Shown here piece after piece: positions 32,529 through 54,353 of a stretch of 64,000 nucleotides of DNA (position 1 is its first letter; each line of letters opens with the position of its first letter). The notes under the pieces were generated by a model. It made no database searches, was not told where the DNA came from, and saw nothing but the letters and a program-made list of their open reading frames with translations. The translations under genes and the position numbers were made by a program. This DNA comes from a bacterium (GTDB lineage Bacteria > Bacteroidota > Ignavibacteria > UBA10030), in assembly GCA_043803945.1 (NCBI GenBank), contig JAZDJN010000054.1, positions 1-64,000 on the forward strand. The letters are read 5' to 3'.

Positions 32529-32788
32529 TTACGTAAAAAAAGAAAAATCATCAATTAATCTGGGTTCTTAATAGCAAACTCCAAACCACCCCATATGAGG
32601 CTCTCTAAAAAGTGTCTTTGTTATTTCGATCCCGATTTATCGGGAGAGAAATCTTGCTTTTTGTTTAGATTTCTCAGTTGCTGTGCGCCTTCGAAATGAC
32701 AAAACGGTCTTTTTGGACAGCCCCCAAAAGGGGAGGTCAAAAACAAAATTGATCGCTTCAGTCATACAGATTCTTCTTCCGGCGTAAC
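32529..32788 (+). mobile_element. Composite non-autonomous element, copy A (scaffold, inner IR element 32597-32724, REP-like doublet)
   Basis: Flanks are homologous to those at 45040-45301 and 54019-54353. Inner termini GAGGCTCTCTAAAAA/TTTTTGGACAGCCCC. Confidence 0.7.
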
Positions 32789-32881
32789 GTGAGTCATTAA
32801 GTATTTTTTTATCGAAAAGGGTAAAGGCGAGCGATCCTTATAACTCAACCTTAGTGCTCACGCGGCTGAGTATCAACATTT

Positions 32882-35314
32882 ATGAAGCACACACCGTTTC
32901 CTCATACCAAGAGACTACACTCTGTAATATCTGTAAGCCATGCGTGGGTGCTTTGCCCTCTGATTAGGTTTTCACGACTGTTCCGACATTCGTACCTCAG
33001 AAACATCCATCTGCTACACCTTGCATTCTTGTTCCCCTTAATCCTCTATTCTCAAAATTTCAAACAGGGAACAGTTGATTCTCTTCTTCTGCGTGCAGAT
33101 TCCTGTCTAAAAAGGGGATTATCGGGCGAGGCAAAAAAACTCTTTGGGACAATTCTCTCCAATTCCGGATCAGCCTCCGTTCAAGCGTTATCGGGAAGAG
33201 GGTCTCTCTTTATGGCAGAAGGCCGGTGGGGGCAGGCACTCGACGACATAAAAAAAGCAGTGCAGGGTGCTCCGGAGAATATGGAGCTGCATTACCAGCT
33301 TGCGATCTGCGAGAGAGAGTATGCGCGCTTGTATTCCGGCGGAAGTCATTGGACGGATGCTAACAACGAGTTTCAGTGGATTCTGAGAAAAGACTCTCTC
33401 TATCAGGATATTCTCGGACAGTATGCACTCTTTCTGTATTTTCGCGGTGAGGGAGAGAAAGCCTTTGACGTTGCTCAACGGTTTGTCCTGAAGAAACCCC
33501 GCGATCCCCGTTCCCACCTTACTCTCCATAGGCTGTACCGATTATTTATCGCCGAGCATGATGAGGAAGAGGCTCTTGATGCATTTGAAAAGAGAGGTGA
33601 TGAGACTGCCCAGTATTTTGCGGGGGAGATACTCCGGAGAAGCGATAAACTCGAGAAGGCTGAGCAGATATTCCGCACACTCCTTTCCCGTGAACAAACA
33701 ATGCCGAGGCAGCCGATCTATCTTTCCCTTGCGCGTCTCTATGCCAAACGTGACCAACCCGATAGTGTAGACCGATGCTTCTGGTCAGCCGTGAATGATA
33801 TACAAGTCTTTGCCGGCATCGGATTTGTCTTTCGGGATCTCAAATATATTTTTTCTCCGACAGAGTACCAGCATTACATTTCACTTTCGAACGCTGCTCA
33901 GCAGGCAGTATTTTTCCGGACGTTTTGGCAGAGGAGAAATCCGGATCCAACGGCAATCCACAACAAACGGTTAGTGGAACATTACCAAAGGCTCAACGGT
34001 GCTGAGGAGCAATATGAATGCTGGTCATTCAGGCAGCAGCTCTTACCGGGTGAAATTCCAATTTCGTTTCCCCCGCTCTACGCGCTGAATCAGGAATTCA
34101 ACGATAAGGGATTGTTCTTTCTTCGTTTCGGCAAACCGGACCAGATTGCGACAAAGAGCGGATGGGAGCCGCTTTCGCAGACTGCTGGTTCAACTTTACG
34201 CTCCAGCACGGAGCTGGGTACAGGAACCGAGTCGTGGCTGTATACGAGAAAAGAAAATTATCCCAAAATGATTATTCACTTCAAGGAATTATCAGGAAGG
34301 CGGAATGAATGGCGGATTGGGACATGGGTGAGTGTCAACCTGCTTGAGAGATTGGCGGCCTGGGATATGAGCTATTTCGAGGTGTACCGTGATCCGGCAC
34401 GATATCTTGATCCCAACCAGAGTGAGGGGCAGCAGTGGATGGACAAGGTTGCCGAGGAGGGAGAGAAGACAGTTATTCTTGCACTCTCTATGGATCGGTC
34501 GTCGAGTGGTGAGAAGCTTATACAGATTCCAGTGCATTCCAGTGTCACCTCATTCCAGGGGCCCGCAAAGCGATCGTATGTGGATGTGAGCTATGCGATA
34601 CCGACCACAGCGATTCTCAACAAGGTGAGCGACACTACTCAAGTTGTCCGTGTTGAAATCGGGCTGCTTGTCCACAGCACATCGTCTGTGCAATTCTTGC
34701 GGCAGGTCGATACCGTTTCGATATCGCTGAAGGCGCATCCTTCCGGGATGTTTCTCGATCTGCTTCGGTTTCCCGCGCCGCCGGAGATTTACAACTTTGC
34801 GCTGCAAGTGAAAGTACTTGGCACACCGCTGGTGGGGGGATGGAGCTTTGTCGGAAAGGTCCCCGATTATTCAGGTACCGACCTCTCGATGAGCGATATT
34901 GAAATTCTCTTCCCTGTGCCGGAGCGGGGTGTCCTTCAGATCGATGGTGTCTCAGTTATGCCAAGTCCGTTTATTACGCTCATGACAACCGATCCTGTGA
35001 GAACCTATGTTCAGGTCTATAATCTACAGAAAGATTCGCTTGGAAAGACATCGTACACGATCGAATACAAATTGACCAAAGTTAGGTCAACCGAGAATTT
35101 TTTTGGCAAGGTATCGGGACTCTTCCGTTCGAAAAAGAAATCGGGTTCAACTTCGAAACTCGAATTGGGAGGGAAGGAAAAGGATGTGACTCAATATATG
35201 CCGCTGGTGGTGACAGATATTGAGCCAGGCGATTATTATTTGACGATACGAGTGACTGATCATAACAGGAAAAAAACAATTGAACGGTTGCGGCCGCTGG
35301 AGCTGCGGGAGTAA
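32882..35314 (+). CDS. TPR protein with GWxTD-like domain (paralog of 30214..32499)
   Basis: FWQRRNPDP...NKRLVEHYQR and NDKGLFFLRFGKPD; colinear similarity to the upstream protein. The true start is probably downstream of 32882. Confidence 0.75.
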   Translation: MKHTPFPHTKRLHSVISVSHAWVLCPLIRFSRLFRHSYLRNIHLLHLAFLFPLILYSQNFKQGTVDSLLLRADSCLKRGLSGEAKKLFGTILSNSGSASVQALSGRGSLFMAEGRWGQALDDIKKAVQGAPENMELHYQLAICEREYARLYSGGSHWTDANNEFQWILRKDSLYQDILGQYALFLYFRGEGEKAFDVAQRFVLKKPRDPRSHLTLHRLYRLFIAEHDEEEALDAFEKRGDETAQYFAGEILRRSDKLEKAEQIFRTLLSREQTMPRQPIYLSLARLYAKRDQPDSVDRCFWSAVNDIQVFAGIGFVFRDLKYIFSPTEYQHYISLSNAAQQAVFFRTFWQRRNPDPTAIHNKRLVEHYQRLNGAEEQYECWSFRQQLLPGEIPISFPPLYALNQEFNDKGLFFLRFGKPDQIATKSGWEPLSQTAGSTLRSSTELGTGTESWLYTRKENYPKMIIHFKELSGRRNEWRIGTWVSVNLLERLAAWDMSYFEVYRDPARYLDPNQSEGQQWMDKVAEEGEKTVILALSMDRSSSGEKLIQIPVHSSVTSFQGPAKRSYVDVSYAIPTTAILNKVSDTTQVVRVEIGLLVHSTSSVQFLRQVDTVSISLKAHPSGMFLDLLRFPAPPEIYNFALQVKVLGTPLVGGWSFVGKVPDYSGTDLSMSDIEILFPVPERGVLQIDGVSVMPSPFITLMTTDPVRTYVQVYNLQKDSLGKTSYTIEYKLTKVRSTENFFGKVSGLFRSKKKSGSTSKLELGGKEKDVTQYMPLVVTDIEPGDYYLTIRVTDHNRKKTIERLRPLELRE

Positions 35315-35919
35315 ATAGCTTTATCATTTCCCGGTTTCCAGTTCCACTCTAAACGCTCTCTGCACCGATCCCCAAACATCTCTAAAAAAGCAGACTGCAA
35401 GAACTGTTCTGTGAGTTGGTTTGCCTGCCGCCGCTTCTCCCGCGCAACATCGGCTTTCTCTAATATGGATGCGATTTGCTTTTGGATGGGAAGTGGGGGA
35501 AGAGGGACTCTAATTGATTCTAAATATGTTTTGTTTATATGCGGAATCGTTGCTCCGGTACAATGCTCTCTTAATGAAGAGAATTGCGATCGCAAAAACC
35601 AACCGAGATAGATTGGGGAGATCCCTTCGCTTACTATTCTCAGTCGAGCAAGTGTACTTCCAATGAATCCTTGTAACCCAAAACCAATTGTCCCCGCGTT
35701 TGCACCATCCCAATCAATTATGATATCTTTATTCGTAACCTCAACACCTTTCTCGTCTGTATACTTTAGATTGTTGTCAGTTCGCAAATCTTCAATTTGA
35801 ATGTATCTGCTTCCTCCATTCGTCGGAGATGTCAGGATAATATCATGTTTATTCCCCTTGGATATTGAGGTGAATTCGCCGAGCGGCTTCACGTTCCAAG
35901 CATTGATACTTACTCTCAT
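35260..35919 (-). pseudogene. hsdS: Type I R-M specificity subunit, half-size (one TRD plus conserved region)
   Basis: GATIPHI...PLPPLPIQKQIASILEKAD...LQSAFLEMFGD, after which homology ends at about 35367 and the frame runs into the convergent gene. Confidence 0.8.
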
Positions 35920-37136
35920 CTGCGTTGCTTTCGATTCATAAGAGCTTTTCTGGTTACTTCCACTTCATTCGCCAACCTCTTCTCATCAGGTAGAGCAAGC
36001 TTGTACTCTGCAGCGAGTACTTTGTTGGGTAATCCTTCGAGTGCATACCTGGCAACAGCAGTGTCCTTCTCAGCGCAGAGGATCAGTCCGACCGGCGGAT
36101 TCTCACCATCGTTCACCCAATGTTCACGAGCGTAATTGAGATACAGATGCATCTGCCCGGCATCGGCGTGTGTGAACTTACCGACCTTCAGGTCGATTAC
36201 CACCAAACATCTCAGCTTGCGGTGGAAGAAGAGAAGGTCGATGCGGTACCATTCGTTACCTATACGGAGACGTTTTTGTCTGCCAATGAATGCGAAGTCG
36301 CCGCCGAGCTCGAGCAGGAACCTCTCCAAGTGCACAATGAGGGCTTCCTCCAGATCATTCTCAGAGTACTCATCCTTCAATCCGAGAAACTCCAGCACGT
36401 ACGGATCTTTGATCTCCTCCTCGGCAGTTGGGATGTCTCCTGCCTGTGGCTTCGATCCTTTCTTTAGCATCGCTCCCTTCTTTCTAGAAAGAAGCGTGCG
36501 CTTATAAAATTTGGTCGAGATCTGTCTGTCCAATTGCCGCACAGACCAACCGCCGCGAATTGCTTCAGTTTCGTAGAAGGCACGAGCCTCGGGGTTCTCC
36601 ACTGAGAGGAAACGAACATAATGCGACCAAGGAAGAGGAAAGGTATGAGCAAGTTGCGAGAGAGTGATTTTCCGGGACAGTGTTTCGGATTTTCCAGACA
36701 GTGTCTGAATAATTTCAGGTTCGGTAGGCAGTGCCAGCATTTTCTGTATCGTTGCAGTTTCAGATTGTGCAGACAGTGTCTGCACAATTGAAGATTTGCC
36801 AGACAGTGTCTGTCGAATGTGATTTGGATCCCACGCAAGGAAAAAAGCTCTGATTTGAAACAGATTACGCCGGCTGAATCCACGACCGAACCGTGCTGTC
36901 AGATCTTCAGCCAATTTATCGATTACCTGTTCACCATAAGCTGCCCTTATGTATCCACGCTGCTCAAACTCCACGATCCTTTGCCCAATTTCCCAGTAGG
37001 TTGCAGTGAGAATAGCATTGACTGTTCGAGCGCTTGTTCGCCTTGCCTGCTCTAACAGCTCACTGACCGAAGAAAGGAGTCCATGGTAATCGCCAGCCCG
37101 GACAAGTACGCTTGATGCATTTTTCTTTTTTGCCAT
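35916..37136 (-). CDS. YhcG/DUF1016 PD-(D/E)XK nuclease-domain protein
   Basis: YWEIGQRIVE, GRGFS..NL, LPWSHY, KDPYVLEFL, IDLLFFHR and GQMHLYLNY. Confidence 0.92.
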   Translation of the reverse strand: MAKKKNASSVLVRAGDYHGLLSSVSELLEQARRTSARTVNAILTATYWEIGQRIVEFEQRGYIRAAYGEQVIDKLAEDLTARFGRGFSRRNLFQIRAFFLAWDPNHIRQTLSGKSSIVQTLSAQSETATIQKMLALPTEPEIIQTLSGKSETLSRKITLSQLAHTFPLPWSHYVRFLSVENPEARAFYETEAIRGGWSVRQLDRQISTKFYKRTLLSRKKGAMLKKGSKPQAGDIPTAEEEIKDPYVLEFLGLKDEYSENDLEEALIVHLERFLLELGGDFAFIGRQKRLRIGNEWYRIDLLFFHRKLRCLVVIDLKVGKFTHADAGQMHLYLNYAREHWVNDGENPPVGLILCAEKDTAVARYALEGLPNKVLAAEYKLALPDEKRLANEVEVTRKALMNRKQRR

Positions 37137-37138
37137 AG

Positions 37139-38670: not shown

Positions 38671-38712
38671 AAGTTTTTAATTCTTCCTCATGGTTTCGAC
38701 CCCACCCTTTGT

Positions 38713-38831
38713 GAGGCTGTCTTAAAAATACATTTATTGGTGGGATAGGCATTCTTGCCTGTCCGATATTAGCAAATAATGACAAACAGGAATGTTTGTC
38801 CCACCAAATTTTTTTCTTTTTGGACAGCCGC
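38713..38831. mobile_element. MITE-like inner element (copy B, no scaffold) with REP-like doublet
   Basis: Termini GAGGCTGTCTTAAAAA/TTTTTGGACAGCCGC. Internal inverted pair TTGGTGGGATAGGCATTCTTGCCTGTC / GACAAACAGGAATGTTTGTCCCACCAA. Confidence 0.7.
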
Positions 38832-39221
38832 ATAATGCAAGGCGGTCATGAAACTTTGTCTTCGAGATTTGATAGTCTCATTTATCTTTACAAGAACATC
38901 GTTTAATTTGTTATATATTTCTTCATTCGTGAACCTCACAACGCAAATTCCAAGTGCTTCGATTTCTTTTTGTCTGTTTCTATCATATTCAATCGCATCA
39001 GCTTTATCATGTGATGATCTATCAATTTCAATAGCAAGTTTGATTTCCGTTGAATAAAAATCTACCACATACGATCCAATGCTGTATTGCCGGCGAAACT
39101 TGCATCCATTTATTTGTCTGCTCCGTATCCGTGCCCACAAGAGCCGTTCTGCTTCTGTCATCTCCCGGCGCAGTTCCTGCCGCCGCTCCTTCATCTCAAA
39201 CCTGTTGAAGACATCAGTCAT
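38769..39221 (-). CDS. DUF559 / Vsr-like endonuclease-domain protein
   Basis: LRREMTEAERLLW, KFRRQYSIGSYVVDFY, LAIEID..SH and VRFTNEEI. The 3' end reads into the MITE. Confidence 0.88.
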   Translation of the reverse strand: MTDVFNRFEMKERRQELRREMTEAERLLWARIRSRQINGCKFRRQYSIGSYVVDFYSTEIKLAIEIDRSSHDKADAIEYDRNRQKEIEALGICVVRFTNEEIYNKLNDVLVKINETIKSRRQSFMTALHYAAVQKEKNLVGQTFLFVIIC

Positions 39222-39294
39222 ACACTATGATAATACTAAAATATCCTCCTTCACAAGTCGAAGATCCCGCTTGCTCTTGAGCGGGAGGGTCGCC

Positions 39295-39361: not shown

Positions 39362-42300
39362 TCAATTAGCTATTTGTTCATAAAGAATGATCCGAGTTTG
39401 GGGATCAGGTGAGAGATGAGGTGCCATCAAGGGTTCATCAATTACAATTGATGATCTCACCTTCCAGTCCTCTTTCGATACAATTCGAAAACGGTTGAGG
39501 ACAACGTCAAGGTTCTTTCTTACCCATTCCACTCTCCGTAAATGCTTCGCAAGATGTGACTGAGGGCCGTCAAAAAGTTCTTTTAGTTCTTGATGAAACT
39601 CATATGGTGTTCTTGAGAGAAGAAGGTCTTTGCACTCAATAATATCGATGATTTTATCTTGCGGATATAATACAATAACGTCAATATCGCCTAATGACTG
39701 TCCGCGTCCAAACTCCATTTCCACTTTTCCGAACCTCTTTATGTTGGAATCGACGATCACGTTCTCACTTTTTTTGAATTGTTGAGCCACTTTCTCATTA
39801 AACTGGCGACCGTATGGCTCCCTGAGTTTGCTAATAATACGCTGCAAAGCTGTTGATTTTACCTGACTATGGAGGCGACCGGAAACGATAGTTCCGAAGA
39901 AGTTGTTGAACGCCGTCCAAAGCATCCTTACACCAAAATGGATATACGGTATGCCGTTTCTTAATTCAACAATTAATGGTCGACGGATGTATGATACTTG
40001 TCGATTGAATCTCCAAGGATAGTAGTGGTGCTTCCCAGAGAACTTAGGATGGCTAAAAAACTCTGTTCTTGGTTCAAACACAAGCGCCTCCAATAGCACA
40101 GCAATACGTTCAGGTGGAATCTTGCCATCTGAGGTTAATGATTGATGTATATTTTCGTAAACACCAACGTAGATAGTTAAATCACTTTTCAATGCAATCG
40201 AATGCAAACAACCGACAAGGTTAGAATAATCATCCAGAGTATATCCAAATTCTTCTAACATGCCAGTATTCACTTCCATCAACAAATCGCTCGTTCGTTC
40301 ATCAGGTGGATCGACTTGCTTTATGGTAGAGCTCCAGTGCTTTTGAAAAACTCTGAGGAGGTGACTAGAGTATCGAGTGAAATACTGTGAAGTAAAAGCA
40401 GACAAGGCTTTTTCATACTGCTCTCTTGTGCGACCTACGCGACCTGAATCGAGTAGTTTGACCTTCATATTACCAATATTGTAATAGAGTAGATCACTGG
40501 TAAATCCCCAGCTAACAATTTGCTCTGCTATAGCAACCAAGCGGTCAAGGGACGCCTCACTGACAGGACGAATTCCAGATGGGGGCTGCGCCGCTACGTA
40601 TTCTATAAGGAACCTACTTGCAATACTAGATTCCGATATCTTTTTCGATCGTTCTTCGAACATTGAACTAATCTTTGATTGATCAGCAATTTCCAACTGC
40701 ATAGGCATCTGCATTTCAATAAGTGCCTTCTCTCGAACTAGTGCTTCATTCTGTCCTATGAGCGTTTCGATCAGATCTGTGGCACGATAGGTTGCTACCT
40801 CTTTTTTCAGTTCCGAAAAGAGATGACTGACGATATGTTCATTAATGAACGTTGCTTGTTTTCCAGGATCATCTTCAATTTTAAGTTTGAGGCTGGTAAC
40901 ATGTTCACCAACGTCATCCAGCATGGATTCTATGTCCATTTCATCAACAAGCCTTGGATCGTCAATTCCCCTAGGATCAAGCTCTGGATTCGTAATAGTA
41001 TCAACAGTAGATATTTTCTTCTTTCGTCCGAGTGGTGCATACTTGTTGAGCAACTGCTCGATGCTGGTCGTTCCAAATGGATCACTTGCCAGGTTTCTTC
41101 TTACTACCTCACCGAGTGCCCTGAGGAGGATACCAATAGCAAACCTTTCTCCTTCGTTTGTTTGGCCATACATCTTGTGTACAATCGCAGGATAAATTTC
41201 TACCGTGATCATTTCTTTGGTCGTTATATCGCATATCAAGTAAGCCTCGTCTCTGAGTGGTGGTTCGCTCGGCCTCCAAGAATTCCAGTCAGCCTTTTCG
41301 TCGATTTTAATCTGGATAACAAACTGAGAGTATAGTTGCTTGATTTGGAGAAATATTAGTTCTAAGGCTTCGCGCATTTCATACAACCAAAAACTGAACA
41401 TCTCGATCATTTCGATCACGATTCTACGAGGGTCACCCGACAGCTTCTCGTTTTCACAGACAAACCAGATAGGAATGGTAAAAGCTTCAAGCAATACTTC
41501 AACAGCGCTTGGGATATCTCTTGGGATATACACGGGAGTATTATCACCGTGCAACTTGATCACCTCTGTGATCGCATCTCTTGAAGGTGTCACTACCGCG
41601 TGGCGATCAATCTTTATAAGCGCTTCTGTCCTCACTGCTCTTGCAAAGTCACCTGGGAGATAGAGCATGGTAGGTTGAGTTTCATCGCCAATGTAATACG
41701 AATATTTTTTGGATCGAAAGAAGCCATACTCATCCATAGTATCAAAACTGATGATCTGAGTTCTATTTCGGATTCTTTTTTGAGCAATTGCGTATTTATA
41801 CAAAAAGAGATTCTTTCCACCCTCAAGTGTAGCAATAATATCTAGTGTTGCGGAGGAAAGGCACAGTGCTGGGAAATCATAATACGGCTGGCAAAATTGA
41901 AATTTGGTCCACCGAAGAAAATGACAAAACAAAAACAGATACATTATCTCATTGGGTGGATTCTTGGAGAGGAAAAAAATATCCGATAGCTCTTTCAATT
42001 TCACGTGCAAGACGGATGAATCTCCAATAGTATTCACATTGGATCGCGGAACTAGATCATCGGTGAGTAAACACACGATCATCACCTTATCAACATCAAA
42101 TCCAAAAGCACCAATGACGCTTGAAAGCCTGGCATCCTCTTTAGGTTCCAAGCCCTTGATAGGGAGTGCTTCAAGCCAACTAAGGTGAGTAGACACACTT
42201 GCCCACGCTTTGTGTCGCAGTTCCTGTGCAAATTTGTCTCTCAATCCATTTTGTTCAAGTACATTAATTATGTGGTGTTTCAGCGAAGGCAAGAGCGCGC

Positions 42301-43045
42301 TTGAGTCACTTACTATGAAGGAAGATCGAGTTTTTATGATCGGTGTCCTAATCATATCTCCCTCATCGAAGTCTCTAAGAAATCTCTCAATTCGAACTTG
42401 CCCGATTGGAGTACAAAATGGATCATATTCATTTGTTCTAAAGCCACATTTTCTACCTAAATCGTTGAATTCATCAAAGGTAAAAGTTACTGAATGTTGA
42501 AGCTGATGGAGTTGTTCTTCTTTTGGAATAACTATTTTATCTGAGTATTGAGCTTGAGTATTTCTGAGAATCCCAGCTTTTTGAGCAATCCGCTCGCTAA
42601 CGGTGAGAATAAAAAGGCATTTTGAATACAGATCTACCGAGATTGCATCAGGTAGTAAGGATTCAGTTGGGTGGAACAATGCATGGAAAAGAAGATCAGC
42701 TGTATGATGCTACGCATCAAAACTTCCTGGAAAAATCCTATATCCTCCACCAAAGAAAACAATCTCTTCACAAAGAGGTTGTTTCGAAGGATCTTCTGCG
42801 CGGGTGAAATATGAGTCTGCTATTTCATTACCGTTGACAAGTTCATCAAGTTCTGCTGGGGAGATTTCCGGTTGATCGTTTTCAACATTCGCGGCGGCCA
42901 GATTGCAAAGAGCATCAATCCGGACGACATGATCGGAGTTCTCTGTATGAATGCGCAACGCCGCCAATTTACACAATAAATCGACAGTATTATAGCCCTC
43001 AATTTCCCCTTTTAGAACTTTAATTGTGTGTTTATTATTATTCAC
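39362..43045 (-). pseudogene. Large (1227-codon) hypothetical protein with C-terminal PD-(D/E)XK-like nuclease, interrupted by one in-frame TAG at 42710-42712
   Basis: ORFs 42710..43045 and 39362..42679 are in the same frame (..FDA*HHTADLLFHALFHP..). C-terminal GDIDV...IIECKD motif. Confidence 0.75.
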
Positions 43046-43073
43046 CGCTATCAGTACGAAATAATTTCAAGTT

Positions 43074-43224
43074 CTATCCAGTGAACCTCTTCGCCAAATA
43101 AATCAACGTGTTAATCTCGTTTTCGCTAAACAGCTTCGCCACCGCATTATTCATATCAAGCATACATTTTACCTGTTCGATACTTTACCTTTGGCTCCTC
43201 AGCGCCAAAGCCAATTCGCCGCTT
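43074..43224 (-). repeat. Direct repeat unit 2: ORF6N-protein tail plus 26-codon ORF
   Basis: KRRIGFGAEEPKVKYRTGKMYA*, then 1 nt, then MNNAVAKLFSENEINTLIYLAKRFTG*. Confidence 0.8.
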
Positions 43225-43497
43225 ATAGGGCATATGCTTGGAATGCCTTCCTCTCTTTAAGGTACCAAATTGGTACCTTAGAGTCGAATACTCTTCCACT
43301 GTGAGAACAAACATGAAGTCGCCCGGAAAACGATCACGGTTTCTGTTCACAGCCCGTTTGAGAGCTTTAGTCTCTACCTCATATAAATCGGCAAGGTCGG
43401 TATCCAGAATTACCTTTTGTCCTCGAATCAGTAGAATTCTCCGCTCGATAACTTCCGGCACCAATTCGACCCGTTTCAATAGCCTCTCCTTTTTCAT
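43156..43497 (-). pseudogene. ORF6N-domain protein, internally deleted
   Basis: IRGQKVILDTDLADLYEVET...RNRDRFPGDFMF. PY is joined directly to KRRIGF, so the AFTEQGVAMLSSVL segment usual in this family is absent. Confidence 0.8.
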
Positions 43498-43500
43498 TAT

Positions 43501-43678
43501 CTATGCTGCCAATCTCTTTGCTAATTCAATTAACTCTTCTATCTCACTCTCCCCAAACAACTTCTCCACCGCGTTATTCATCTCACGCTTTCATTATACC
43601 AGTTCGATATTTTACCTTTGGCTCTTCAACGCCAAAACCAATGCGCCGCTTGGGAGAGGTGGGTGGAGCCATCAATTG
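43501..43678 (-). repeat. Direct repeat unit 1: orphan ORF6N-protein tail plus 26-codon ORF
   Basis: QLMAPPTSPKRRIGFGVEEPKVKYRTGIMKA*, then 1 nt, then MNNAVEKLFGESEIEELIELAKRLAA*. Offset from unit 2 is 427 bp. Confidence 0.8.
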
Positions 43679-45015
43679 TCAAATAGTTTCTCAGCCAAAG
43701 GCTGATCCGCCAAACAGATGGCGGACAGGTGCGCCGGTGCAAGGGCTTCCTTCGTTTCATCAATCGAGGCAAGCGTTCTCGACACCCAGAAATCGTTAAA
43801 GATTGTTACGAGCACCGGTATCTGCCCTGTCGTTCCCTCTTCCTGAGCCGGCAGCATATTGAAGTGCTCGAAATTCTCCCAGTAGTCGACAATAAGGAAC
43901 TCTTCCTTTTCCTCTTCTGTCATATTCGCGCCTTTGATTCCCTGGCGCTGGAACTTTGTCTGTGCGGCATACACGTTTTTATCAACGAGATATTTCTCCT
44001 CGACTGCCTTATCAAACGTATAAAGGAAGGTGGGAATCTTATCGTGACAATCGAAAAACTTAAACGTGTCCCGCTCAATGAACTCCGCGGGTGTGGCTGT
44101 CAATCCGATCTGCACACCATCGAAGTATGCCAGGACATCTGTGAATTTGTTGTAAATGGAGCGGTGACATTCGTCTGTTATAATCAAATCGAAATCGGCC
44201 GGAGTGAACTTATCGTAACATAACTCGAGTGTCTGGAGTGTGGAGACACAGATGCGTTTCCGTTTCGCATCCTCAAGATCGTAGGTGCGAATGCGGGCTC
44301 GTGACTCGTTGGGGAGGAACACCTTGAATCCATCTGTCAATGCTTGTTCTACGAGTGCATCCCGGTCGGCAAGGAACAGAATCCTCTGAGCTTGATGCGT
44401 CTTCAGAAACAGATCGATCAACGCCATTATCGTGCGGGTCTTTCCTGTTCCCGTTGCCATCACGAGAAGCGCTTTCCGCTTCTTCTTGGTTTCTATTGTT
44501 TCGGAGATCCTTCGAATCGCCTCTACCTGGTAGGAGCGGTTAACAATTGTTGCATCGATCTGGATACTGTTGAGGGGCTTCTTGTTTTGTTTCAGGAAGA
44601 GGAGGCGCTCAAGATTTTCCCGTGAGAAAAATCCAGCCACCTGCCGTGCGGCCGCTGCCTCGCTATCCCAGAAGAAGATATCTTCTCCATTTGCCATGAA
44701 TCCGAATGGGCGGAAGCTTTGTTTCTTTTCGATTCCTTGCAGGTACTCCAGGATCTGCTGTTTGCCGACACGTGCATCTCGGCTCGTTCGTTTTGCCTCG
44801 ACAACAGCGAGTACCTCACCGTTTGTGCGATAGAGACAATAATCGGTGAACCCTTCCTGAGGAGATGCATCGTAACCTGCAACGGGGATTTCGAATGCGA
44901 CCTGTGTGCGGTCGGAGATATTCCATTCGACTTTCCTGATCTGCGGGTCTATAATGTTGTACCGAGTCTGTGCTTCGCTTATTCTATAACGATTTGTACT
45001 CAGGCTACACCCCAA
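43672..45015 (-). pseudogene. hsdR: Type I R-M restriction subunit (EcoEI/EcoAI-like), internally deleted and truncated
   Basis: TDY...VEAKR nuclease motif, MATGTGKT, DECH and TATP are present. Helicase motifs IV-VI (no QxxGR) and most of the C-terminus are missing; only 447 codons remain. Confidence 0.87.
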
Positions 45016-45039
45016 TGAGCAGTGAATGATATAAACACG

Positions 45040-45301
45040 TTACGCAAAATGGATTGATCATCGATTAAGAGAGTTTTATTTCTTGGTATACTTAATCCTC
45101 CCATATGGGGTTGTCCAATGTGTAGGACGAGTTGTCCGACTTTTAGTCGAGCTAACTCGTCCACATTCCTGAAAATTTTAGGATTTATATGTGTCACGGT
45201 ATGGACCGTGACACCCACGCGATCCTTTTAGACACCCCGAAAGGAGAGGTCAGATGCAAGATCTACCGCTTTAATCAAGCAGTTCGTTCTTTCTGCGTAA
45301 C
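45040..45301 (+). mobile_element. Composite non-autonomous element, copy C (scaffold, inner element 45107-45238, different REP-like doublet)
   Basis: Same flank lengths and motifs as copy A (TTACG.AAAA...ATCATC.ATTAA...CCCATATG; GAGGTCA...GCGTAAC), but more diverged. Confidence 0.62.
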
Positions 45302-45395
45302 ATCAGTGATTAAAACACAACGACGAGAAAGAGCTCTTAAAATCTAATATTCCTTTGTGTCGTTGTGGTTCAATTCTTTTGTGTATTTACAAATG

Positions 45396-45590: not shown

Positions 45591-45706
45591 GCCACTAAGA
45601 CACGCCTGCCCGCCGCAAAGATTCTTTCAGGTAGGCGGGAAGTCACTAAGAATTTCTGTAAATATAAAAATACTCATGATTCTTCGTGCATTGGGGACTT
45701 AGTGGC
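45591..45706. repeat. Palindromic element (GCCACTAAG...CTTAGTGGC) with inserted micro-palindrome
   Basis: Inverted 9-bp termini, internal CACTAAG repeat and CCTGCCCGCCGCA...AGGCGGG insert at 45605-45639. Confidence 0.65.
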
Positions 45707-47035: not shown

Positions 47036-48643
47036 ATGACTGATCAAAAAAAAGTTGGTGTTGTGACACAGGTGAATAGCGGATCGTTAACTGTCATTCT
47101 CGATACGACCGTCACAACGCTTGTCCGTGAGTTGAGCGGGAAAATTTATTATATCGGCCAGATCGGAACGTACTACCTGATTCCGGTAAACAAGCTGCTT
47201 ATTGTGACCATGGTCTCGGATATCCGCAAAGCAGAAAATGTGGAAAATGGGAAATCGTCGCAGCGTTATCTTATGACACTTAATCTTGTTGGAACGGTAA
47301 AAGCCGGCCGTTATGAACGTGGAGTTTCATTTATTCCACCCGTTGATTCACCCGTCTTCATTGCAGAGGATGCCGATCTGACCGCTGTCTTTTCAATCTT
47401 CAGGAAGTTTGGTTTTTCAGTTGGACAGCTCTCCTTGTTTGAGCGTGAGCGTGCATTCCTGGATCCGAACAAATTTTTTGGGAAACACCTTGCCGTACTC
47501 GGATCGAGCAGTGCAGGAAAATCGTGCACGGTTGCATCAATCCTGCAAAAAGTTGCCTTCTATCCGGATGCGAATATCATCATCCTCGATATTCATAATG
47601 AGTACAGTACGGCCTTCCCCGATGTCAGCAAGCATCTCAACATTGCGGAGCTGGAAATGCCCTTCTGGCTGATGAACCTTGAAGAAATGCGAGAGACGTT
47701 CATTGACGATCGTGATGAAAATGCATCAAGCCAGTTAACAGTCTTCAAAGACCTTATTATGATGTCGAAGAAAGCCAAGAATCCGCAGCTTGCCGAGGTC
47801 TTGACGATCGATACGCCGGCATATTTCGATCTCGCTGAAGTCCGTGCGAAGATGCAATATCTGGATACGGAAAGAATCTCCGGTGCGAGCTCAGGTGGTG
47901 CAAAGGAGGGCCCGTTCTATGGCAAGTTTGCCCGATTTCTTGTCCGGCTCGATAGCCGCCTGAACGATCCCCGCTATGCCTTTATGTTCAAGCCCAAAAA
48001 CTATATCCAGTCTTCTTCCCTTAAAGAATTGCTGAGTGAAATCTTTGGTGCCGAGGGAAGCGCTCAAGTTACCATTATGGATATGAGCGGTATCCCATTC
48101 GATATTGTGAATACCATCGTTTCGCTGGTTGCCCGGATGGCATTCGATTTCAACTTCTGGAATAACAACCGCCGGGATTTTCCAATTCTTCTTGTTTTTG
48201 AGGAGGCGCACAACTATTTGCCATCCAGCGGTATCGCCGGCGCTGCACGGAAAACCGTTGAACGTATTGCGAAAGAGGGACGTAAGTACGGAGTGAGTTG
48301 TATGATTGTCAGCCAACGGCCTGCCGAAGTCTCTGAGACGATTATTTCTCAGTGTAACAACTTTGTCATCCTTCGCCTCACGAACCCGATCGATCAGAAC
48401 TATGTGCGTAAACTGATGTCGGATACCTTCTCAGGCTTAATCGATACACTTCCTTCACTCAGGCAGGGCGAGGCATTGATTGTAGGTGAAGCGATTCCGA
48501 TGCCGCTTCGGGTTCAGATAGATTTTCCAAATCCCGAGCCTGCAAGCGCCGACATCAAGTTCTTCGACAAGTGGAAGCAGAGTGATAATAAGACGATCGT
48601 GCCCGATGTCGTTGAGAGGTGGTGGAGACAGATCAGGCATTGA
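47036..48643 (+). CDS. HerA/FtsK-like ATPase (DUF87/DUF853) with HAS barrel
   Basis: GQIG HAS barrel, KHLAVLGSSSAGKS, DIHNEY, FEEAHNY and KEGRKYGVSCMIVSQRP. Confidence 0.9.
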   Translation: MTDQKKVGVVTQVNSGSLTVILDTTVTTLVRELSGKIYYIGQIGTYYLIPVNKLLIVTMVSDIRKAENVENGKSSQRYLMTLNLVGTVKAGRYERGVSFIPPVDSPVFIAEDADLTAVFSIFRKFGFSVGQLSLFERERAFLDPNKFFGKHLAVLGSSSAGKSCTVASILQKVAFYPDANIIILDIHNEYSTAFPDVSKHLNIAELEMPFWLMNLEEMRETFIDDRDENASSQLTVFKDLIMMSKKAKNPQLAEVLTIDTPAYFDLAEVRAKMQYLDTERISGASSGGAKEGPFYGKFARFLVRLDSRLNDPRYAFMFKPKNYIQSSSLKELLSEIFGAEGSAQVTIMDMSGIPFDIVNTIVSLVARMAFDFNFWNNNRRDFPILLVFEEAHNYLPSSGIAGAARKTVERIAKEGRKYGVSCMIVSQRPAEVSETIISQCNNFVILRLTNPIDQNYVRKLMSDTFSGLIDTLPSLRQGEALIVGEAIPMPLRVQIDFPNPEPASADIKFFDKWKQSDNKTIVPDVVERWWRQIRH

Positions 48644-48669
48644 TAATTGTCGAGACATTGTTATGCGTG

Positions 48670-48699
48670 AAAAGGTGTGCCGATGGTACACCTTTTTTT
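48670..48699 (+). terminator. Intrinsic terminator after the ATPase
   Basis: AAAAGGTGTGCC-GAT-GGTACACCTTTTTTT. Confidence 0.8.
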
Positions 48700-48712
48700 G
48701 TGGTGATCTTTT

Positions 48713-49018
48713 CACTGTTCCCCGAGTGCCGTTGTCGGCCTGCCCGCCGCAGCCATGCGCAGGCGGGGGATCTATCATGCAGTGGAGTGTGGTTCCGTGT
48801 AGCAGATCCCAAACTGAAGCATTTTGGGATCACTGGTTATTTCCTGTTATCTCCTCAACCCTCAGTGATCCCCGAATGCTTTTATCGGGGATCTGTCATG
48901 CGTGGAGTATAGTTCCGCGTAGTAGATCCCAAACTGAGGCCCGCCTTCGCACTTCGTGTTTCCGCCTGCTCTGAAGCTCCGGCGGACGGGTCGGCGGGCA
49001 AGCATTTTGGGATCACTG
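48713..49018. repeat. Tandem pair of REP-doublet (REPIN-like) units
   Basis: Units 48713-48835 and 48863-49018: CA(C/G)TG.TCCCCGA.TGC...TCGGGGATCT-spacer-AGATCCCAAACTGAAGCATTTTGGGATCACTG. Each has a different GC-rich insert. Confidence 0.8.
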
Positions 49019-49102
49019 TATTTGCGTGTTGATGTCCATCATTAGCGGGAACACCATGAGCGAAACGGACGTTATTCTTTTATAGAGAAGAACAAGCTCA
49101 GG

Positions 49103-49489: not shown

Positions 49490-49556
49490 TCCCCCTTTTG
49501 AAAGTTCCATTCCGCAATTCCTCCTCCCATATGTGCCATCTTGAATCCAAATTTCT

Positions 49557-49790
49557 TTAATTCAAACCGCAAGCACCACCGCAGCATTCACCGCCCGTTT
49601 CACAAGGAGGCGCTGAAGGGTAATTTGAGGAGGATGAACCGGACATTGAAACCGATGCAGCCGATATCAGTTTTTTATGCTGAGTAGATCCGCAACTCGG
49701 GCAGATCACATCTTCGATTACTTCTTTTGTTTTATGATATACGTCGTACGTCCCTCCGCAATCCACACAGCGATAATCGTAAATGGGCAT
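49557..49790 (-). CDS. FmdB-family zinc ribbon protein
   Basis: MPIYDYRCVDCG...CPSCGS with Cys-rich tail CETGGECCGGAC. Confidence 0.9.
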   Translation of the reverse strand: MPIYDYRCVDCGGTYDVYHKTKEVIEDVICPSCGSTQHKKLISAASVSMSGSSSSNYPSAPPCETGGECCGGACGLN

Positions 49791-49852
49791 TCTATTCTCC
49801 TATAAGTGTTTTGCAAAAATATTGATAAAACTGTCAACTCCAGTTTATGTGG

Positions 49853-49987
49853 AAAAATCAAAAATGAAAAATCAAAATGACAACGGAAAATGAAGATATC
49901 GAAAGAGTAGCATAATTCACATATGAGTTCTTCATCATTTTGATTTTTACATTGTTATTTTGCTCTTTTCACTCTAATTCTTGATTT
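49853..49987. repeat. Inverted arrays of ~7-nt A-rich repeats
   Basis: AAAAATC-AAAAATG-AAAAATC-AAAATGAC facing CATTTTGATTTTTACATTGTTATTTTG. Confidence 0.55.
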
Positions 49988-50039
49988 AAGATATTTTACC
50001 TTGTGAAGATGTGATGCAGTAAATCTCAAAACGATTCAT

Positions 50040-50864: not shown

Positions 50865-51066
50865 GAACTCCTTGAAATGTCGATACTCTCTCTGCATTAA
50901 GAAAACCAGATAATAGGACACAGATGACACAAGAAAACCACTGATCATCACAGATAATATTTTAAGAAGATTATTGAGGGTATTCATTACTCAGAATAAT
51001 AAGGGTGTTGTGTCGATCTTGTATTTTTCAGTGTCATCAGTGTTCAAATATTTTCTCACTGAGCAG

Positions 51067-53832
51067 TTACTTTGATTTTAATAATTGGCGAAGGACATAT
51101 TGAAGAATGCCGTCATTCTTATAGTAGTCCACCTCATTTGGCGTATCGATCCGGCACAGTACTGTAAAGCTCTTCACCGATCCATGTTGGTCGATGGCCT
51201 TCACATTCATTTTCTTATGCGGGTGAAGGTCCTGGGCGATTCCTTCGATTGAGTATGTCTCAAATCCTGTCAGCCCCAGGGATATGTAATTTTCTCCATC
51301 CATGAATTGGAGCGGGAGAACTCCCATGCCAACCAGATTACTTCGATGAATTCGTTCGAAACTTTCTGCGATGACTGCCTTCACACCAAGAAGCATGGGG
51401 CCTTTTGCGGCCCAATCACGTGATGATCCGGAACCATATTCTTTGCCTGCGATGATGATCGTTGGAATTCCTTCTGCTTTATACTTCATCGCTGCATCGA
51501 AAATTGAAAGGGGATCTTTCGACGATGGATGAATAGTCACTCCTCCCTCAGTGCCCGACAGCAGGAGATTCTTCAATCTCACATTGGCAAAGGTTCCGCG
51601 CATCATGATTTCATGATTGCCGCGGCGTGCACCATACTGGTTGAAATCTTTTTTCTGAATACCCCGATCCGTTAAATAGCCTGCAGCCGGGCTGCTTGCC
51701 GCGATTGATCCGGCAGGTGAGATATGATCTGTTGTGACTGAATCGCCAAGCAATACCAGAGCGCGGGCAGCGCTGATATCAGTTTTTGCGGCCGGCTCTT
51801 TTTTGAGGTCGGTGAAATAGGGTGCGGCTTTGATATAGGTGGATTCAGCATCCCACGTATAGCGCTCTCCCGATGGCGTATCCAATGCGTTCCATCGCTC
51901 ATCTCCACCAAAGACATCAGAGTATTGCTCCTTAAACATGCTCGAAAGCACGTTATCCCTGACGGTTTGCTGTATCTCTTCCGGAGTTGGCCATATATCT
52001 TTTAGATAGATCGGTTGGCCATAGCTTCCTGTACCTAGTGGTTCGGTAGTCAGGTCGATGTCCATTGTGCCAGCCAATGCATACGCAACGACGAGAGGGG
52101 GAGAGGCGAGGTAGTTTGCTCGTACCTGGGAGTGAACCCGGCCTTCGAAGTTACGATTGCCGGAGAGTACGGAAGCGACAACGAGATCATTCTCCTGAAT
52201 AGACTTCGAAATTGCATCGGGAAGAGGTCCGCTGTTTCCTATGCAGGTCGTGCAGCCATAGCCAACTAAATGAAAACCAAGCGCGCCCAACGGTTCATAC
52301 AAACCGGCATGCCTGAGATACTCGGTGACGACTTTCGAACCGGGGGCGAGACTTGTCTTCACCCAGGGTTTTGTCCTAAGTCCCTTTGCAATTGCTTTTT
52401 GTGCGAGCAACCCTGCAGCAATAAGGACGGAAGGATTTGAAGTATTTGTACAACTTGTAATCGCGGCAATCACCACATGCCCGCTATTCATTTCTAAAGG
52501 TGATCCATCTTTCACGGTTGAGATCGGTTTCAATTTCAATTCAAATGCCGCTGGTACAGATGCCGAGGATTGCTCTGTCCACTGCTTCAGATCTTCTTCA
52601 TTTGCCTTTGTTCCTTTTGAAGAGAGATAATCGGCAAACGCTTTTCGATAAGAGGTTCTTGCCTGATTCAGGACAACTCGATCCTGCGGGCGCTTTGGAC
52701 CGGCAAGGCTTGCCTCGACTGTTGAGAGATCGAGTTCGAGCGTATCGCTGAACTCCGGTGTTGGTGTCCCCTGGGAGACGAATAGATTTTGGGCTTTGTA
52801 ATACGATTCAACAAGCTGGACGAGTTCAGGATCTCTCCCGGTGAAGTGAAGGAAATTCAATGTCTCATGATCAACCGGAAAGAATCCCATAGTTGCTCCA
52901 TACTCAGGAGCCATATTAGCGAGCGTTGCACGATCGGCAAGGCTTAATGCAGAGATACCGGGGCCGTAGAATTCGACAAACTTTCCGACGACCCGTTTCT
53001 TGCGAAGCATTTGTGTCGCCGTTAGCACAAGATCGGTCGCTGTGGTGCCTGGCTTCAGCGCGCCAAATATTTTAAATCCCACCACCTGTGGTATGAGCAT
53101 TGAAATTGGCTGACCAAGCATTACGGCCTCCGCTTCTATACCTCCAACACCCCACCCGAGCACTCCCAATCCGTTAATCATTGTGGTGTGAGAATCAGTG
53201 CCAACTAACGTGTCGGGGTATGCGACCGTTTGGCCATCAGTCATATCGGTAAAGACGACACGCGCCAGGTATTCCAGATTCACCTGATGGACGATTCCTG
53301 TTTCGGGAGGAACAACGCGAAAATTTTTGAAGGCCTGCTGCCCCCAGCGGAGAAAAGCATAACGTTCTTTGTTTCGCCCATACTCGAGGGCTGCATTCAT
53401 AGAAAATGCCTGGAGTGTACCGTATTCATCAACCTGTACCGAATGATCGATAACAAGATCGACTGGTTGAACAGGATTAATGAGATTTGGATCGCCTCCC
53501 ATGGCAACCATGGCATCGCGCATAACAGCAAGATCCACAACACAAGGGACACCTGTGAAATCCTGGAGGAGGACACGTGCAGGCATAAAGGCAATTTCCT
53601 TATCGGGTTCTGCCTTAGCGTTCCAGTGAATCAGTGCCTCAATATCTTTTTTGGTCACGACTCGCCCATCCTCGTACCGGAGGAGGTTTTCTAAGAGGAT
53701 TCTCAGCGAAATGGGGAGTTTTGAGATCGTTCCTGGATACTGCTTTTCCAAGGCCTGCAAGGAAAAATAGGTATACGATTGAGTGTCCATGGTGAAACTG
53801 GATTTCGTTTGAAAGCTGTCGAGACTCTTCAT
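51067..53832 (-). CDS. acnA: Aconitate hydratase A
   Basis: [40 protein letters not shown] and [10 protein letters not shown]. Confidence 0.97.
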
Positions 53833-54018
53833 TGATCCTCCTTACAATTCCAAGATGGTTATTTGTGCAAGACCAATATATATAAAAAAATCTTCATTTT
53901 TTCATTTCTGATAATGAAGAGATTTACGATATTCTGGTGCGGGAGGAGGCCGCCCCAAATTGCATTTAACGTTCCAGAGAGTGTTCTCGGAACGAGTGAA
54001 AGAGAAATAGTAACTGAC

Positions 54019-54353
54019 GTTACGCCGGAAGAAAAATTTGTATGATTGAAGTGAATGATCCTGTTTTTGACCTCCTCTTTTTGAGGCCGTCCAAAAAGAA
54101 AAAAATTGTCTCACCCGAGTGCTTGTATCGGGTGTCCAGTGCCTTTATTTTTCAAATATCTGGATTCCCTGCCTGCCGAAGTGGCTTCGCCAGGCAGGCA
54201 GGCCGCTAAAAGTCCCGTTGTACGGGATGCCGTAAAGCGGCACATGCGGGAATGACAGTGTCCTTTTTTAGTTTTTAGACAACCCCATATCGGGTGGTTT
54301 GGGGTTTGCTAATGAGAGCCCAGATCGATAGATCTTTTTCCTTTTCTGCGTAA
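54019..54353 (-). mobile_element. Composite non-autonomous element, copy D (inverted relative to A; inner element 54083-54286)
   Basis: Flanks match copy A with about 11 differences in 64 nt and about 13 in 68 nt by hand alignment. Inner termini GAGGCCGTCCAAAAA/TTTTTAGACAACCCC. Confidence 0.75.

Follow-up and report, generated by a model that had tools for sequence, protein, structure and literature searches.

An intergenic repeat of layered organization: one non-coding frame encloses unrelated DNA-hairpin clusters at three loci of a single contig

The analyzed window was a 64-kb stretch of one contig from an uncultured lineage, and the whole sample of 3+1 copies lies within it. We observed that a non-coding frame of 187 bases is common to three intergenic loci, named A, C and D, and that it holds unrelated clusters of DNA hairpins inside. 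The frame is made of a 54-nt outer arm and a 40-nt unit on the left, and of a 38-40-nt unit and a 53-nt outer arm on the right. These part lengths were equal in A, C and D, and the break points agreed within 1-2 nt, which bears out the claim of the first-pass annotation that the arms are split at one position in all copies. At this single interruption point the frame contains a core of 94 nt (A), 99 nt (C) or 170 nt (D), and the three whole elements measure 281-357 bp. In our analysis A, C and D most resemble a layered version of the known REPIN, BIME, BOX and MITE repeats, and not a new kind of system. Their parts, with the evidence for each in brackets, are:

32520-32800, + strand: element A
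32520-32573, + strand: A outer left arm, 54 nt, starting ..CAC TTACGT, an A/G-rich terminal inverted repeat (BLAST, nhmmer left-arm model)
32574-32613, - strand: A left U unit, a REP-like imperfect palindrome of ~40 nt in reverse orientation (R1 40.8 bits, alignment)
32614-32707, + strand: A core, 94 nt, a 13-bp closing stem enclosing two hairpins (DNA fold z = -5.5 for 32612-32709)
32708-32747, + strand: A right U unit (R1 45.7 bits)
32748-32800, + strand: A outer right arm, 53 nt, ending ..TTCTTCCGGCGTAAC GTGAGTCATTA (BLAST)
45030-45313, + strand: element C
45030-45083, + strand: C outer left arm, the most diverged part of the family (nhmmer, global alignment)
45084-45123, - strand: C left U unit (R1 35.6 bits)
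45124-45222, + strand: C core, 99 nt, three hairpins in succession (DNA fold z = -8.0 for 45118-45225)
45223-45260, + strand: C right U unit (R1 35.2 bits)
45261-45313, + strand: C outer right arm (BLAST)
54007-54363, - strand: element D
54310-54363, - strand: D outer left arm (repeat search, BLAST)
54270-54309, + strand: D left U unit, reverse relative to the element (R1 37.7 bits)
54100-54269, - strand: D core, 170 nt, at least four hairpins including the CCTGCCTGCC..GGCAGGCAGG hairpin at 54168-54198 (DNA fold z = -6.5 for 54098-54271)
54060-54099, - strand: D right U unit (R1 44.4 bits)
54007-54059, - strand: D outer right arm (repeat search, BLAST)

We compared the arms by pairwise BLAST within the window. 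The right arms of A and D were 80.2% identical over 101 nt (E = 1.6e-20) and their left arms 78.5% identical over 93 nt (E = 3.3e-16), in agreement with the value of about 80% given previously; a repeat search recovered the A/D arms independently at 80-81% identity. The right arm was also matched between A and C (72.9%, 96 nt, E = 2.4e-12) and between C and D (69.6%, 92 nt, E = 4.9e-8), and in global alignment it was well conserved, without indels. C had been called more diverged, and indeed its left arm gave no BLAST match at E<0.01 within the window. Aligned globally, this arm was 60-61% identical to those of A and D (shuffles: mean 44-46%, maximum 56%), and it has the terminal TTACGC and the stretch CCCATATGGGGTTGTC in common with the family. 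The sequence was as first described, with left and right arms common to the three loci, A and C in direct orientation and D inverted. The boundaries were corrected, as the homology extends ~10 nt beyond TTACG on the left and ~13 nt beyond GCGTAAC on the right.

In the inner part of the frame, a REP-like palindromic unit of ~40 nt, which we named U (consensus TTTTTRGAC-RG-CCNC-loop-GNGG-AG-GTC-AAAAC), forms an inverted doublet. REP-like doublets had been noted in the cores, but it was overlooked that the inner frame itself is such a doublet. A covariance model of U (R1) detected exactly 8 units in the 64 kb; they make up 4 inverted doublets, with no unit left over as a singlet, and neither nhmmer nor R1 revealed further U units or arms in the window past these 8 units and the 3 scaffolds. 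The eight units align with a mean column identity of 66%. In their local hairpin 82.1% of cells were paired, compared with 74.2% in shuffled sequences (0 of 500 reached the value) and 43-67% in slid controls, in a test on 8 related sequences from which the tested structure was itself derived. One stem position changes on both sides (CG, n = 4; UG, n = 2; UA, n = 1; GC, n = 1). Shared inverted inner ends, also reported before, were found in A and D (GRGGYTSTCYWAAAA), while those of C are more diverged. We counted 6 occurrences of GRGGYTSTCYWAAAA against 2.6 expected (2 of 100 shuffles reached 6), and all six lie in A, D and the fourth doublet, element B:

38690-38856, no strand assigned: element B, a U doublet without outer arms (R1 41.0 and 36.7 bits), made of U (38690-38729), an 85-nt hairpin core (38730-38814) and U (38815-38856)

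The doublets of A, C and D are equally asymmetric, with an ATAT loop in the left unit and an AAAA loop (C/G-AAA(A)) in the right one; the loops of B differ. The 3' end of a DUF559 ORF is overlapped by element B, which is situated just upstream of hsdM. R1 did not detect any U unit on the other side of the DUF559 gene in the window, and a literature search yielded no link for DUF559, a candidate mobilizing enzyme.

Further, we analyzed the cores. Their lengths are not conserved (85, 94, 99 and 170 nt), and their sequences are unrelated and not merely diverged, with no BLAST similarity above words of ≤9 nt, as had been noted for the interiors of A, C and D. All four fold as DNA much better than shuffles (z = -5.5 for A, -8.0 for C, -5.1 for B and -6.5 for D). 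Since each folds far better than its shuffles, the cores are structured modules and not drifted spacer. Simple copying of one MITE, already judged insufficient, fails because arms of ~80% identity flank cores without any similarity.

A different derivation from mobile DNA would be that of ordinary MITEs, in which a single insertion sequence supplied the arms as its two ends and the cores as remnants of its interior after independent deletions. The elements are small, multi-copy and non-coding, and they have terminal inverted repeats of the pattern TTACGY..GRAAR / ..TTCTT..RCGTAA. These repeats are imperfect (best local matches 9/10 in A, ~20/31 in C and ~24/33 in D), and the TTACG/CGTAA termini are invariant across A, C and D in the RNAalifold consensus. 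TA, as a candidate target-site duplication, fits at each of the six boundaries, in flanks that are AT-rich; the 7-mers that might be duplicated agree at 6 of 7 positions in D and 5 of 7 in C, and those of A do not match at all. Six-frame translation revealed no ORF common to A, C and D, and A and D had no 5-residue words in common in the relevant frames. A small peptide following the GGAGG of the right arm was rejected, as ATG or TTG follows in C and A only and the peptides are not conserved. However, independent deletions are unlikely to have hit both break points within 1-2 nt in all three copies, the cores are dense hairpin clusters with no coding remnants, and B, without outer arms, is bounded by the same break points. 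No transposase, Y1/RAYT/TnpA, TnpB, IS or recombinase was found among the 50 window ORFs scanned against Pfam, and blastn in distant mode gave no match of A to plasmids or of D to phages. We consider an origin as ordinary MITEs very improbable. A, C and D are old (60-80% identity), therefore recent mobility is not indicated.

Two further groups of candidates were considered. The left boundary carries TTAC, the IS608 target, in all three copies, which might suggest an IS200/IS605-type derivative. This TTAC belongs to the inverted termini and is mirrored at the right end, and D, which by GC skew lies on the same replichore, points the other way. Integron attC sites, retron msr/msd, bridge RNA and omega RNA were rejected in view of the lack of an adjacent integrase, RT, IS110 or TnpB gene.

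One hairpin in the core of D belongs to a second dispersed family, CCTGCCYGCC. This motif was found 11 times in the window against 3.8 expected (0 of 100 shuffles reached 11), with intergenic hairpin copies at 45605, 48739, 48993 and 54168-54202. Hairpins also differ between the members of a repeat pair nearby:

48706-49030, + strand: two paralogous repeat units, 48706-48842 and 48858-49030 (repeat search, unit comparison)

The two units are distinguished by GC-rich sequence at two hairpins that they share: one differs by a 63-nt hairpin in its loop, the other by a 29-nt block at its tip. This pair at 48.7-49.0 kb is independent evidence within the window of turnover at hairpin tips, and indirect evidence of insertion there.

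We regard it as somewhat probable that A, C and D represent a lineage-specific, non-coding and non-autonomous intergenic repeat of three nested layers, the cores of which were replaced after copying. The first layer would be the MITE-like pair of outer arms (54 and 53 nt) with their imperfect terminal inverted repeats, the second the inverted U doublet, REPIN-like in its organization and found alone as B, and the third the 2-4 small hairpins at the tip of the doublet's long hairpin, wholly different between copies. Because the asymmetric doublet is the same in all three and the frame lengths are identical, outer arms and doublet were most likely inherited jointly from one composite ancestor and then copied; replacement of the cores would have followed this copying. 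In the mechanism that we favor, the tip of the U-U' hairpin, exposed on single-stranded or cruciform DNA, may be a hot spot at which small REP-like hairpins are gained and lost; the enzyme would be a hairpin- or ssDNA-specific transposase (RAYT or IS200/IS605-like) encoded elsewhere in the genome. In a variant of this mechanism, different doublets could recombine through their ~40-nt U units and exchange cores in this way. If neighboring genes are affected (mRNA stability, termination), this would be a side effect. Several observations weigh against the layered reading: all 3+1 copies come from one 64-kb window, the 50 ORFs scanned there include no transposase, the terminal inverted repeats are poor, the copies are old, the core lengths vary more than those of REPIN spacers, and no core was common to two of the frames A, C and D, so that exchange, as against replacement, is putative.

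The order of events would be reversed if the frame were a programmed landing pad, the first option of the first-pass annotation. Empty scaffolds, consisting of arms only or of arms and a bare U hairpin, would disperse first. Cassettes bounded by U or REP-like, different for each scaffold, would then be captured independently at one specific site, with swapping of cassettes. The identical break points in 3/3 copies, the existence of the U doublet by itself (B) and the hairpin-tip insertions elsewhere in the window are consistent with such capture, and REP hairpins are documented insertion targets (PMC3184786). On the other hand, all three scaffolds carry the identical asymmetric doublet in one orientation, while independent captures should mix orientations and variants (for orientation alone, 3/3 would arise by chance with a probability of 0.25). 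Neither an empty scaffold nor a recombinase was seen in the 64-kb window. We find this order of events quite unlikely. A dedicated acceptor is a possible but doubtful extension of the layered repeat. The frame would then be a mobile hairpin scaffold whose ssDNA tip serves as a programmed integration site for second-tier tiny hairpins, a repeat-in-repeat-in-repeat form of ssDNA transposition with cassettes exchanged between frames. If so, the recurrent insertions into hairpin tips at 48.7-49.0 kb would show this process at work on further hairpins.

We analyzed whether the elements could act as RNA. In a structured non-coding RNA family, whether of sRNA paralogues or of 5'-leader elements, the arms would be conserved and a hairpin domain at the periphery would vary. 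Folded whole, elements A, C and D form long nested hairpins (z = -4.5, -6.6 and -5.5), the frame length is kept to the nucleotide, and the right arm is conserved without indels. All three are co-oriented with the downstream gene (chance probability of 3/3, 0.25), as would also suit a transcribed or a regulatory function, and 6 of 42 pairs change on both sides. However, any palindromic DNA repeat would give such pairing, and the RNAalifold covariation term was 0.02 (3 sequences). Rfam 15 gave 0 matches at the gathering score in the whole window, and at E≤5 in 32000-55000 only two weak unrelated matches, both outside the elements. The option of a structured RNA, raised by the first-pass annotation, is on these data unsupported. 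Scans for sigma-70-type promoters and terminators, which do not cover other promoter types, revealed nothing common to the three loci and no conserved signal in the arms. The left arm of C has one 9-of-12 sigma-70-like site (45065-45092), at chance level (4 sites in the region, 1.8 expected). The downstream genes are unrelated (TPR protein, SpoIIE phosphatase, aconitase), and they begin at different distances (82, 452 and 175 nt). We think a structured RNA family unlikely.

Inverted ends around segments of 260-340 bp upstream of genes could also suggest invertible promoter segments (invertons), and A and C, in direct orientation, flank a Type I restriction-modification island as recombination sites delimiting it might do. 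Invertase sites are near-perfect inverted repeats. Here the inverted ends are poor within each copy, and the sigma-70-type scan called no promoter-like site inside A or D. As to recombination sites, no pair is more diverged than A and C, unlike recombination products, and an 810-aa TPR gene lies between A and the island. Either role is extremely improbable in our opinion.

We compared the layered repeat with known systems. A REPIN is an inverted REP doublet, the spacer of which is less conserved in sequence and keeps hairpin capacity, with compensatory changes (Bertels & Rainey 2011, PMC3116915); each family has its own spacer length, 71 or 110 bp in SBW25. REPINs also come with a cognate RAYT (Y1 transposase) gene bordered by the same REPs, and with tens to hundreds of dispersed extragenic copies; the 64 kb of this genome that we analyzed hold 4 doublets. 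Like REPINs, U is a short imperfect palindrome with highly conserved ends, inverted pairs form a long hairpin, the doublet is the unit (8 of 8 U in doublets) and the spacer keeps hairpin capacity. Unlike in REPINs, the spacers here are unrelated multi-hairpin clusters of 85-170 nt, and three of four doublets sit inside a further conserved arm pair of ~54 nt. In pneumococcal BOX elements conserved ends pair and internal modules vary, and pneumococcal repeats are also found nested within each other by insertion (Croucher et al. 2011, PMC3049150). The likeness to pneumococcal and S. suis BOX (boxA-boxB(n)-boxC) is that terminal modules pair, and internal ones fold independently and vary without disturbing the frame; in BOX, however, one homologous unit (boxB, sometimes boxD) is repeated in tandem to make up the interior, whereas the hairpins here are mutually unrelated. 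Enterobacterial BIMEs are likewise mosaics of REP hairpins and other conserved motifs, and REPs are known insertion targets, the REP hairpins being specific landing sites (Delihas 2011, PMC3184786). The guests known for REPs are full insertion sequences, in contrast to the small hairpins found here, and the host hairpin here is enclosed by a further MITE-like frame. REPINs, BOX elements and REP insertion targets thus come near, contrary to the initial statement that no named element is alike. With bacterial MITEs (Correia, ERIC, RUP) the elements share small size, intergenic non-coding character and terminal inverted repeats, and bacterial MITE transcripts fold into long stem-loops (Delihas 2008, PMC2229807). 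Copies of one MITE family normally share their interior; the terminal inverted repeats here are weak, TA at the termini is possible and a target-site duplication is putative.

ERIC insertion variants and cyanobacterial nested repeats may be closer relatives of the A/C/D type. Wilson & Sharp reportedly described in 2006 ERIC variants with insertions at fixed internal sites, and Elhai et al. are said to have described in 2008 nested small dispersed repeats of cyanobacteria.

On present evidence, the A/C/D family is a descriptive curiosity from one contig, and its activity and effects on neighboring genes are putative. If the layering holds genome-wide, other small hairpin repeats would be gained and lost preferentially at the tips of hairpins in repeated DNA, REPIN-like doublets could travel within larger non-autonomous elements, and such elements would be extended to an uncultured lineage of the FCB group. 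This bears on the old question of how mosaics of the REP, BIME and BOX type come about and by what enzymes very small repeats are moved.

For relatives, we searched genome contigs with a strict pattern of the right arm (19 specified bases), which gave 3 loci against ~4 expected by chance (own estimate). One match (L001) falls within an ORF of more than 871 aa, and the other two (L002, L003) agree little outside the pattern. The three matches are thus at chance level, and no relatives were found in these contigs with this strict pattern, which may miss diverged copies. The host genome is absent from the searched contigs or masked in them, because the window's own three copies were not among the matches. 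The acyl-CoA carboxylase beta subunit (pccB-like) of the window was a singleton (one 172,944-nt contig), and its best relative, from a Bacteroidota MAG, was 76% identical.

The three loci A, C and D, at which the first-pass annotation had proposed a constant scaffold with three different REP-like cassettes, were confirmed by re-inspecting the sequence. Each consists of two outer arms, an inner frame and a core, and a fourth locus, B, has the inner part only.

32520-32800, plus strand: element A, frame and core
45030-45313, plus strand: element C, frame and core
54007-54363, minus strand: element D, frame and core
38690-38856: element B, inner doublet without outer arms

BLAST within the window aligned the right arms of A and D (80.2% over 101 nt, E 1.6e-20), A and C (72.9% over 96 nt, E 2.4e-12) and C and D (69.6% over 92 nt, E 4.9e-8), as well as the left arms of A and D (78.5% over 93 nt, E 3.3e-16). 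Repeat finding in the window also recovered the arms of A and D independently (repeats I1 and I2). The left arm of C is the weakest part of the family. It gave no match to the other copies by BLAST within the window; in global alignment it was 60-61% identical to those of A and D, while shuffles averaged 44-46% and did not exceed 56%. Similarity continued for about 10 nt beyond the left TTACG and about 13 nt beyond the right GCGTAAC, and then ended. Just upstream of the left end, about 22 nt were common to C and D (45010-45031; 54365-54385, minus strand) and absent in A. These two copies may have a longer left end, or the match may be chance.

The frame had the same order and lengths in A, C and D: outer left arm of 54 nt, inner unit of 40 nt, core, inner unit of 38-40 nt and outer right arm of 53 nt. 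The cores measured 94 nt (A), 99 nt (C) and 170 nt (D) and had nothing in common above words of at most 9 nt. Point substitution cannot account for the different length, architecture and sequence of the A and D cores, given that these two elements retain 80% identity in their arms.

Inner ends resembling GAGGCTGTCYAAAA were present six times in the window (2.6 expected; six reached in 2 of 100 shuffles) and were located in A, D and B. Each is part of an imperfectly palindromic unit, here named U (about 40 nt), in which a T-run and GAC are followed by a C-rich/G-rich stem of 4-6 bp with a loop of 4-10 nt, and then by GTC and an A-run. We aligned eight U units, two per element with the left ones reverse-complemented, and the mean column identity was 66%. 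The local hairpin was paired in 82.1% of cells, compared with 74.2% in shuffles (0 of 500 reached 82.1%) and 43-67% for slid partners, in a test on eight related sequences of a structure derived from those same eight. One stem position varied on both sides (CG in four units, UG in two, UA and GC in the others). A covariance model of U, run over all 64 kb with filters off, found exactly these eight units, at 35-46 bits, and the next match had 12 bits. All U units therefore belong to inverted doublets, four in number, with no unit standing alone, so that the inner frame is organised like a REPIN. The REP-like label, earlier given to the cores only, thus applies to the inner frame as well. The doublet was asymmetric in the same way in A, C and D, with the ATAT-loop unit beside the left arm and the (C/G)AAA(A)-loop unit beside the right arm; in the U alignment, the loops of the B units differed from these.

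The same asymmetric doublet and the identical frame lengths suggest that arms and doublet descend together from one composite, which was then copied. We infer that the cores were replaced after this composite had been copied. In the explanation we prefer, small REP-like hairpins would be repeatedly inserted and deleted where the tip of the U-U' hairpin is exposed, with single-stranded or cruciform DNA as the putative substrate and an enzyme that would be encoded elsewhere. Core exchange through recombination between U units is an alternative that may fit equally well. The unrelated cores could instead have been captured independently at a landing pad, which we consider quite unlikely.

Turnover at hairpin tips was indicated independently at 48.7-49.0 kb, by two tandem paralogous hairpin-rich intergenic units (48706-48842 and 48858-49030). 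The units were near-identical where both were present and were set apart by two indels: a 63-nt GC-rich hairpin, placed in the loop of a hairpin left intact in the other unit, and a GC-rich block of 29 nt that tips a second hairpin common to both. These positions indicate that small hairpins are gained or lost at the tips of other hairpins in this genome, and the cores show the same geometry, each sitting on the tip of a U-U' helix. A hierarchical system of nested transposition targeted to hairpin tips is a more tentative reading, which we regard as rather unlikely. A 130-aa ORF across 48582-48974 had no Pfam match and is probably spurious.

The REP-like motif CCTGCCYGCC, counted with one mismatch allowed, was present 11 times in the window against 3.8 expected, and 11 was reached in 0 of 100 shuffles. 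Its exact or near-exact copies were intergenic hairpins at 45605-45642, 48739-48769, 48940-49002 and 54168-54198, with CCTGCCYGCC...GGCRGGCA(G/A)G stems and differing loops. Since one of these hairpins lies inside the D core, a second dispersed hairpin family has contributed to one core or more. Downstream of C, a 9-bp inverted repeat (45591-45599 / 45698-45706) surrounded one CCTGCCCGCC hairpin and an internal CACTAAG repeat; this may be another composite repeat.

Folding predictions for whole A, C and D gave long, nested hairpins (z = -4.5, -6.6 and -5.5). In the RNAalifold consensus, TTACGY/RCGTAA formed one tier, an A/G-rich stretch paired with a T/C-rich one the next, CCC/GGG the third and a 16-bp U-U' helix the fourth. 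Isolated cores, folded as DNA, were far more stable than their own shuffles (z = -5.5 for A, -8.0 for C, -5.1 for B and -6.5 for D). The A and B cores each had one closing stem enclosing two hairpins, the C core three hairpins in a row and the D core at least four, including a CCTGCCTGCC...GGCAGGCAGG hairpin. Such folding would also be compatible with a structured RNA family; the covariation term of the consensus was 0.02, and we regard this possibility as unlikely.

Coding sequence was rejected, as six-frame translations of the three copies had no ORF in common. A known RNA family was rejected as well, with 0 Rfam matches at the gathering score in the window and none within the elements at E ≤ 5 in 32-55 kb. 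We found no tRNA or tmRNA, and scans of the three loci gave no sigma-70-type promoter or terminator common to A, C and D.

Bacterial MITEs have terminal inverted repeats, often TA termini, and long stem-loops (PMC2229807). That A, C and D are MITEs, IS ends with different deletion remnants as cores, is very improbable; Pfam detected no transposase, RAYT, TnpB, integrase or RT among 50 window ORFs. The same search gave housekeeping genes, a Type I R-M island, DUF559 and ORF6N.

The three copies had unrelated neighbours. A gap of 21 nt separates element A from the TPR/GWxTD gene before it, and the paralogue of that gene follows 82 nt beyond A. Aconitase is encoded 175 nt downstream of D, which is divergent from an acyl-CoA carboxylase beta-subunit (pccB-like) gene. 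Element C has truncated hsdR on one side and, 452 nt downstream, a SpoIIE phosphatase gene on the other. That the copies are invertons or island att sites is extremely improbable; the imperfect terminal inverted repeats argue against invertase sites.

A right-arm pattern with 19 specified bases gave three loci over the genome contigs, about four being expected by chance by our own estimate, and the window's own copies were not among them. One of the three was inside a long ORF, and none had the left arm. Blastn found no match in plasmids (query A) or phages (query D). In a homology search the pccB-like protein was a singleton, on one contig of 172,944 nt, its best relative (76% identical) coming from a Bacteroidota MAG. 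The host appears to belong to the FCB group.

REPINs are described as REP doublets in inverted orientation; conservation is lower in their spacer than in the REPs, yet spacer length and hairpin capacity are kept, with compensatory changes (PMC3116915). In BOX elements, conserved boxA and boxC ends pair with each other and enclose boxB modules, which vary in number and fold independently, and insertion of one pneumococcal repeat into another has occurred (PMC3049150). BIMEs combine REPs with other motifs in a mosaic, and REPs are targets for IS element insertion (PMC3184786). As far as these descriptions go, A, C and D work like REPIN, BOX, BIME and MITE elements and have the arms as an extra outer layer. 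Spacer length is conserved in REPINs but not in A, C, D and B, and internal modules are homologous in BOX but not in A, C and D. The first-pass interpretation, which knew of no named element of this kind, is partly supported: the constant frame with an exchangeable core is real but has precedents, and a programmed mechanism or an RNA function would be hypothetical. A, C and D are best read as a layered REPIN/BIME/BOX-like composite repeat of an uncultured lineage. Possibly closer precedents are the nested small dispersed repeats reported from cyanobacteria (Elhai, 2008) and ERIC variants reported to carry insertions at fixed sites (Wilson and Sharp, 2006).

The paralogues flanking A are tandem TPR/GWxTD-type genes (761 and 810 aa; 30214-35314) whose 3' parts still had 70 nt in common, 74% identical (family D2). 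GGAGG preceded at least one gene start (30214). The first 22 codons of hsdM were present in duplicate on the minus strand (39360-39295 and 38670-38605; 76% over 66 nt, family D3). The two copies are separated by 624 nt, which held a small hairpin, a DUF559 gene (39221-38769), whose ORF ran about 30 codons into B, and B itself. This looks like a DUF559 and repeat cassette inserted into the hsdM 5' end and bringing a surrogate 5' end. The R-M island (39362-45015; GC lower, 42-44%) looks disrupted. It held an HsdR N-terminal fragment (447 aa, HSDR_N and ResIII only), followed by two 160-nt direct repeats (43065-43224 / 43492-43651, 77%) around the ORF6N gene and by ORFs of 111 and 1105 aa, neither with a Pfam match. 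GATC was over-represented in the whole window (426 observed, 247 expected from base composition). The 48.7-49.0 kb repeats had eight GATC in 336 nt, and one GATC stood at the same alignment column in A, C and D, where the outer right arm begins (32751, 45260 and 54057).
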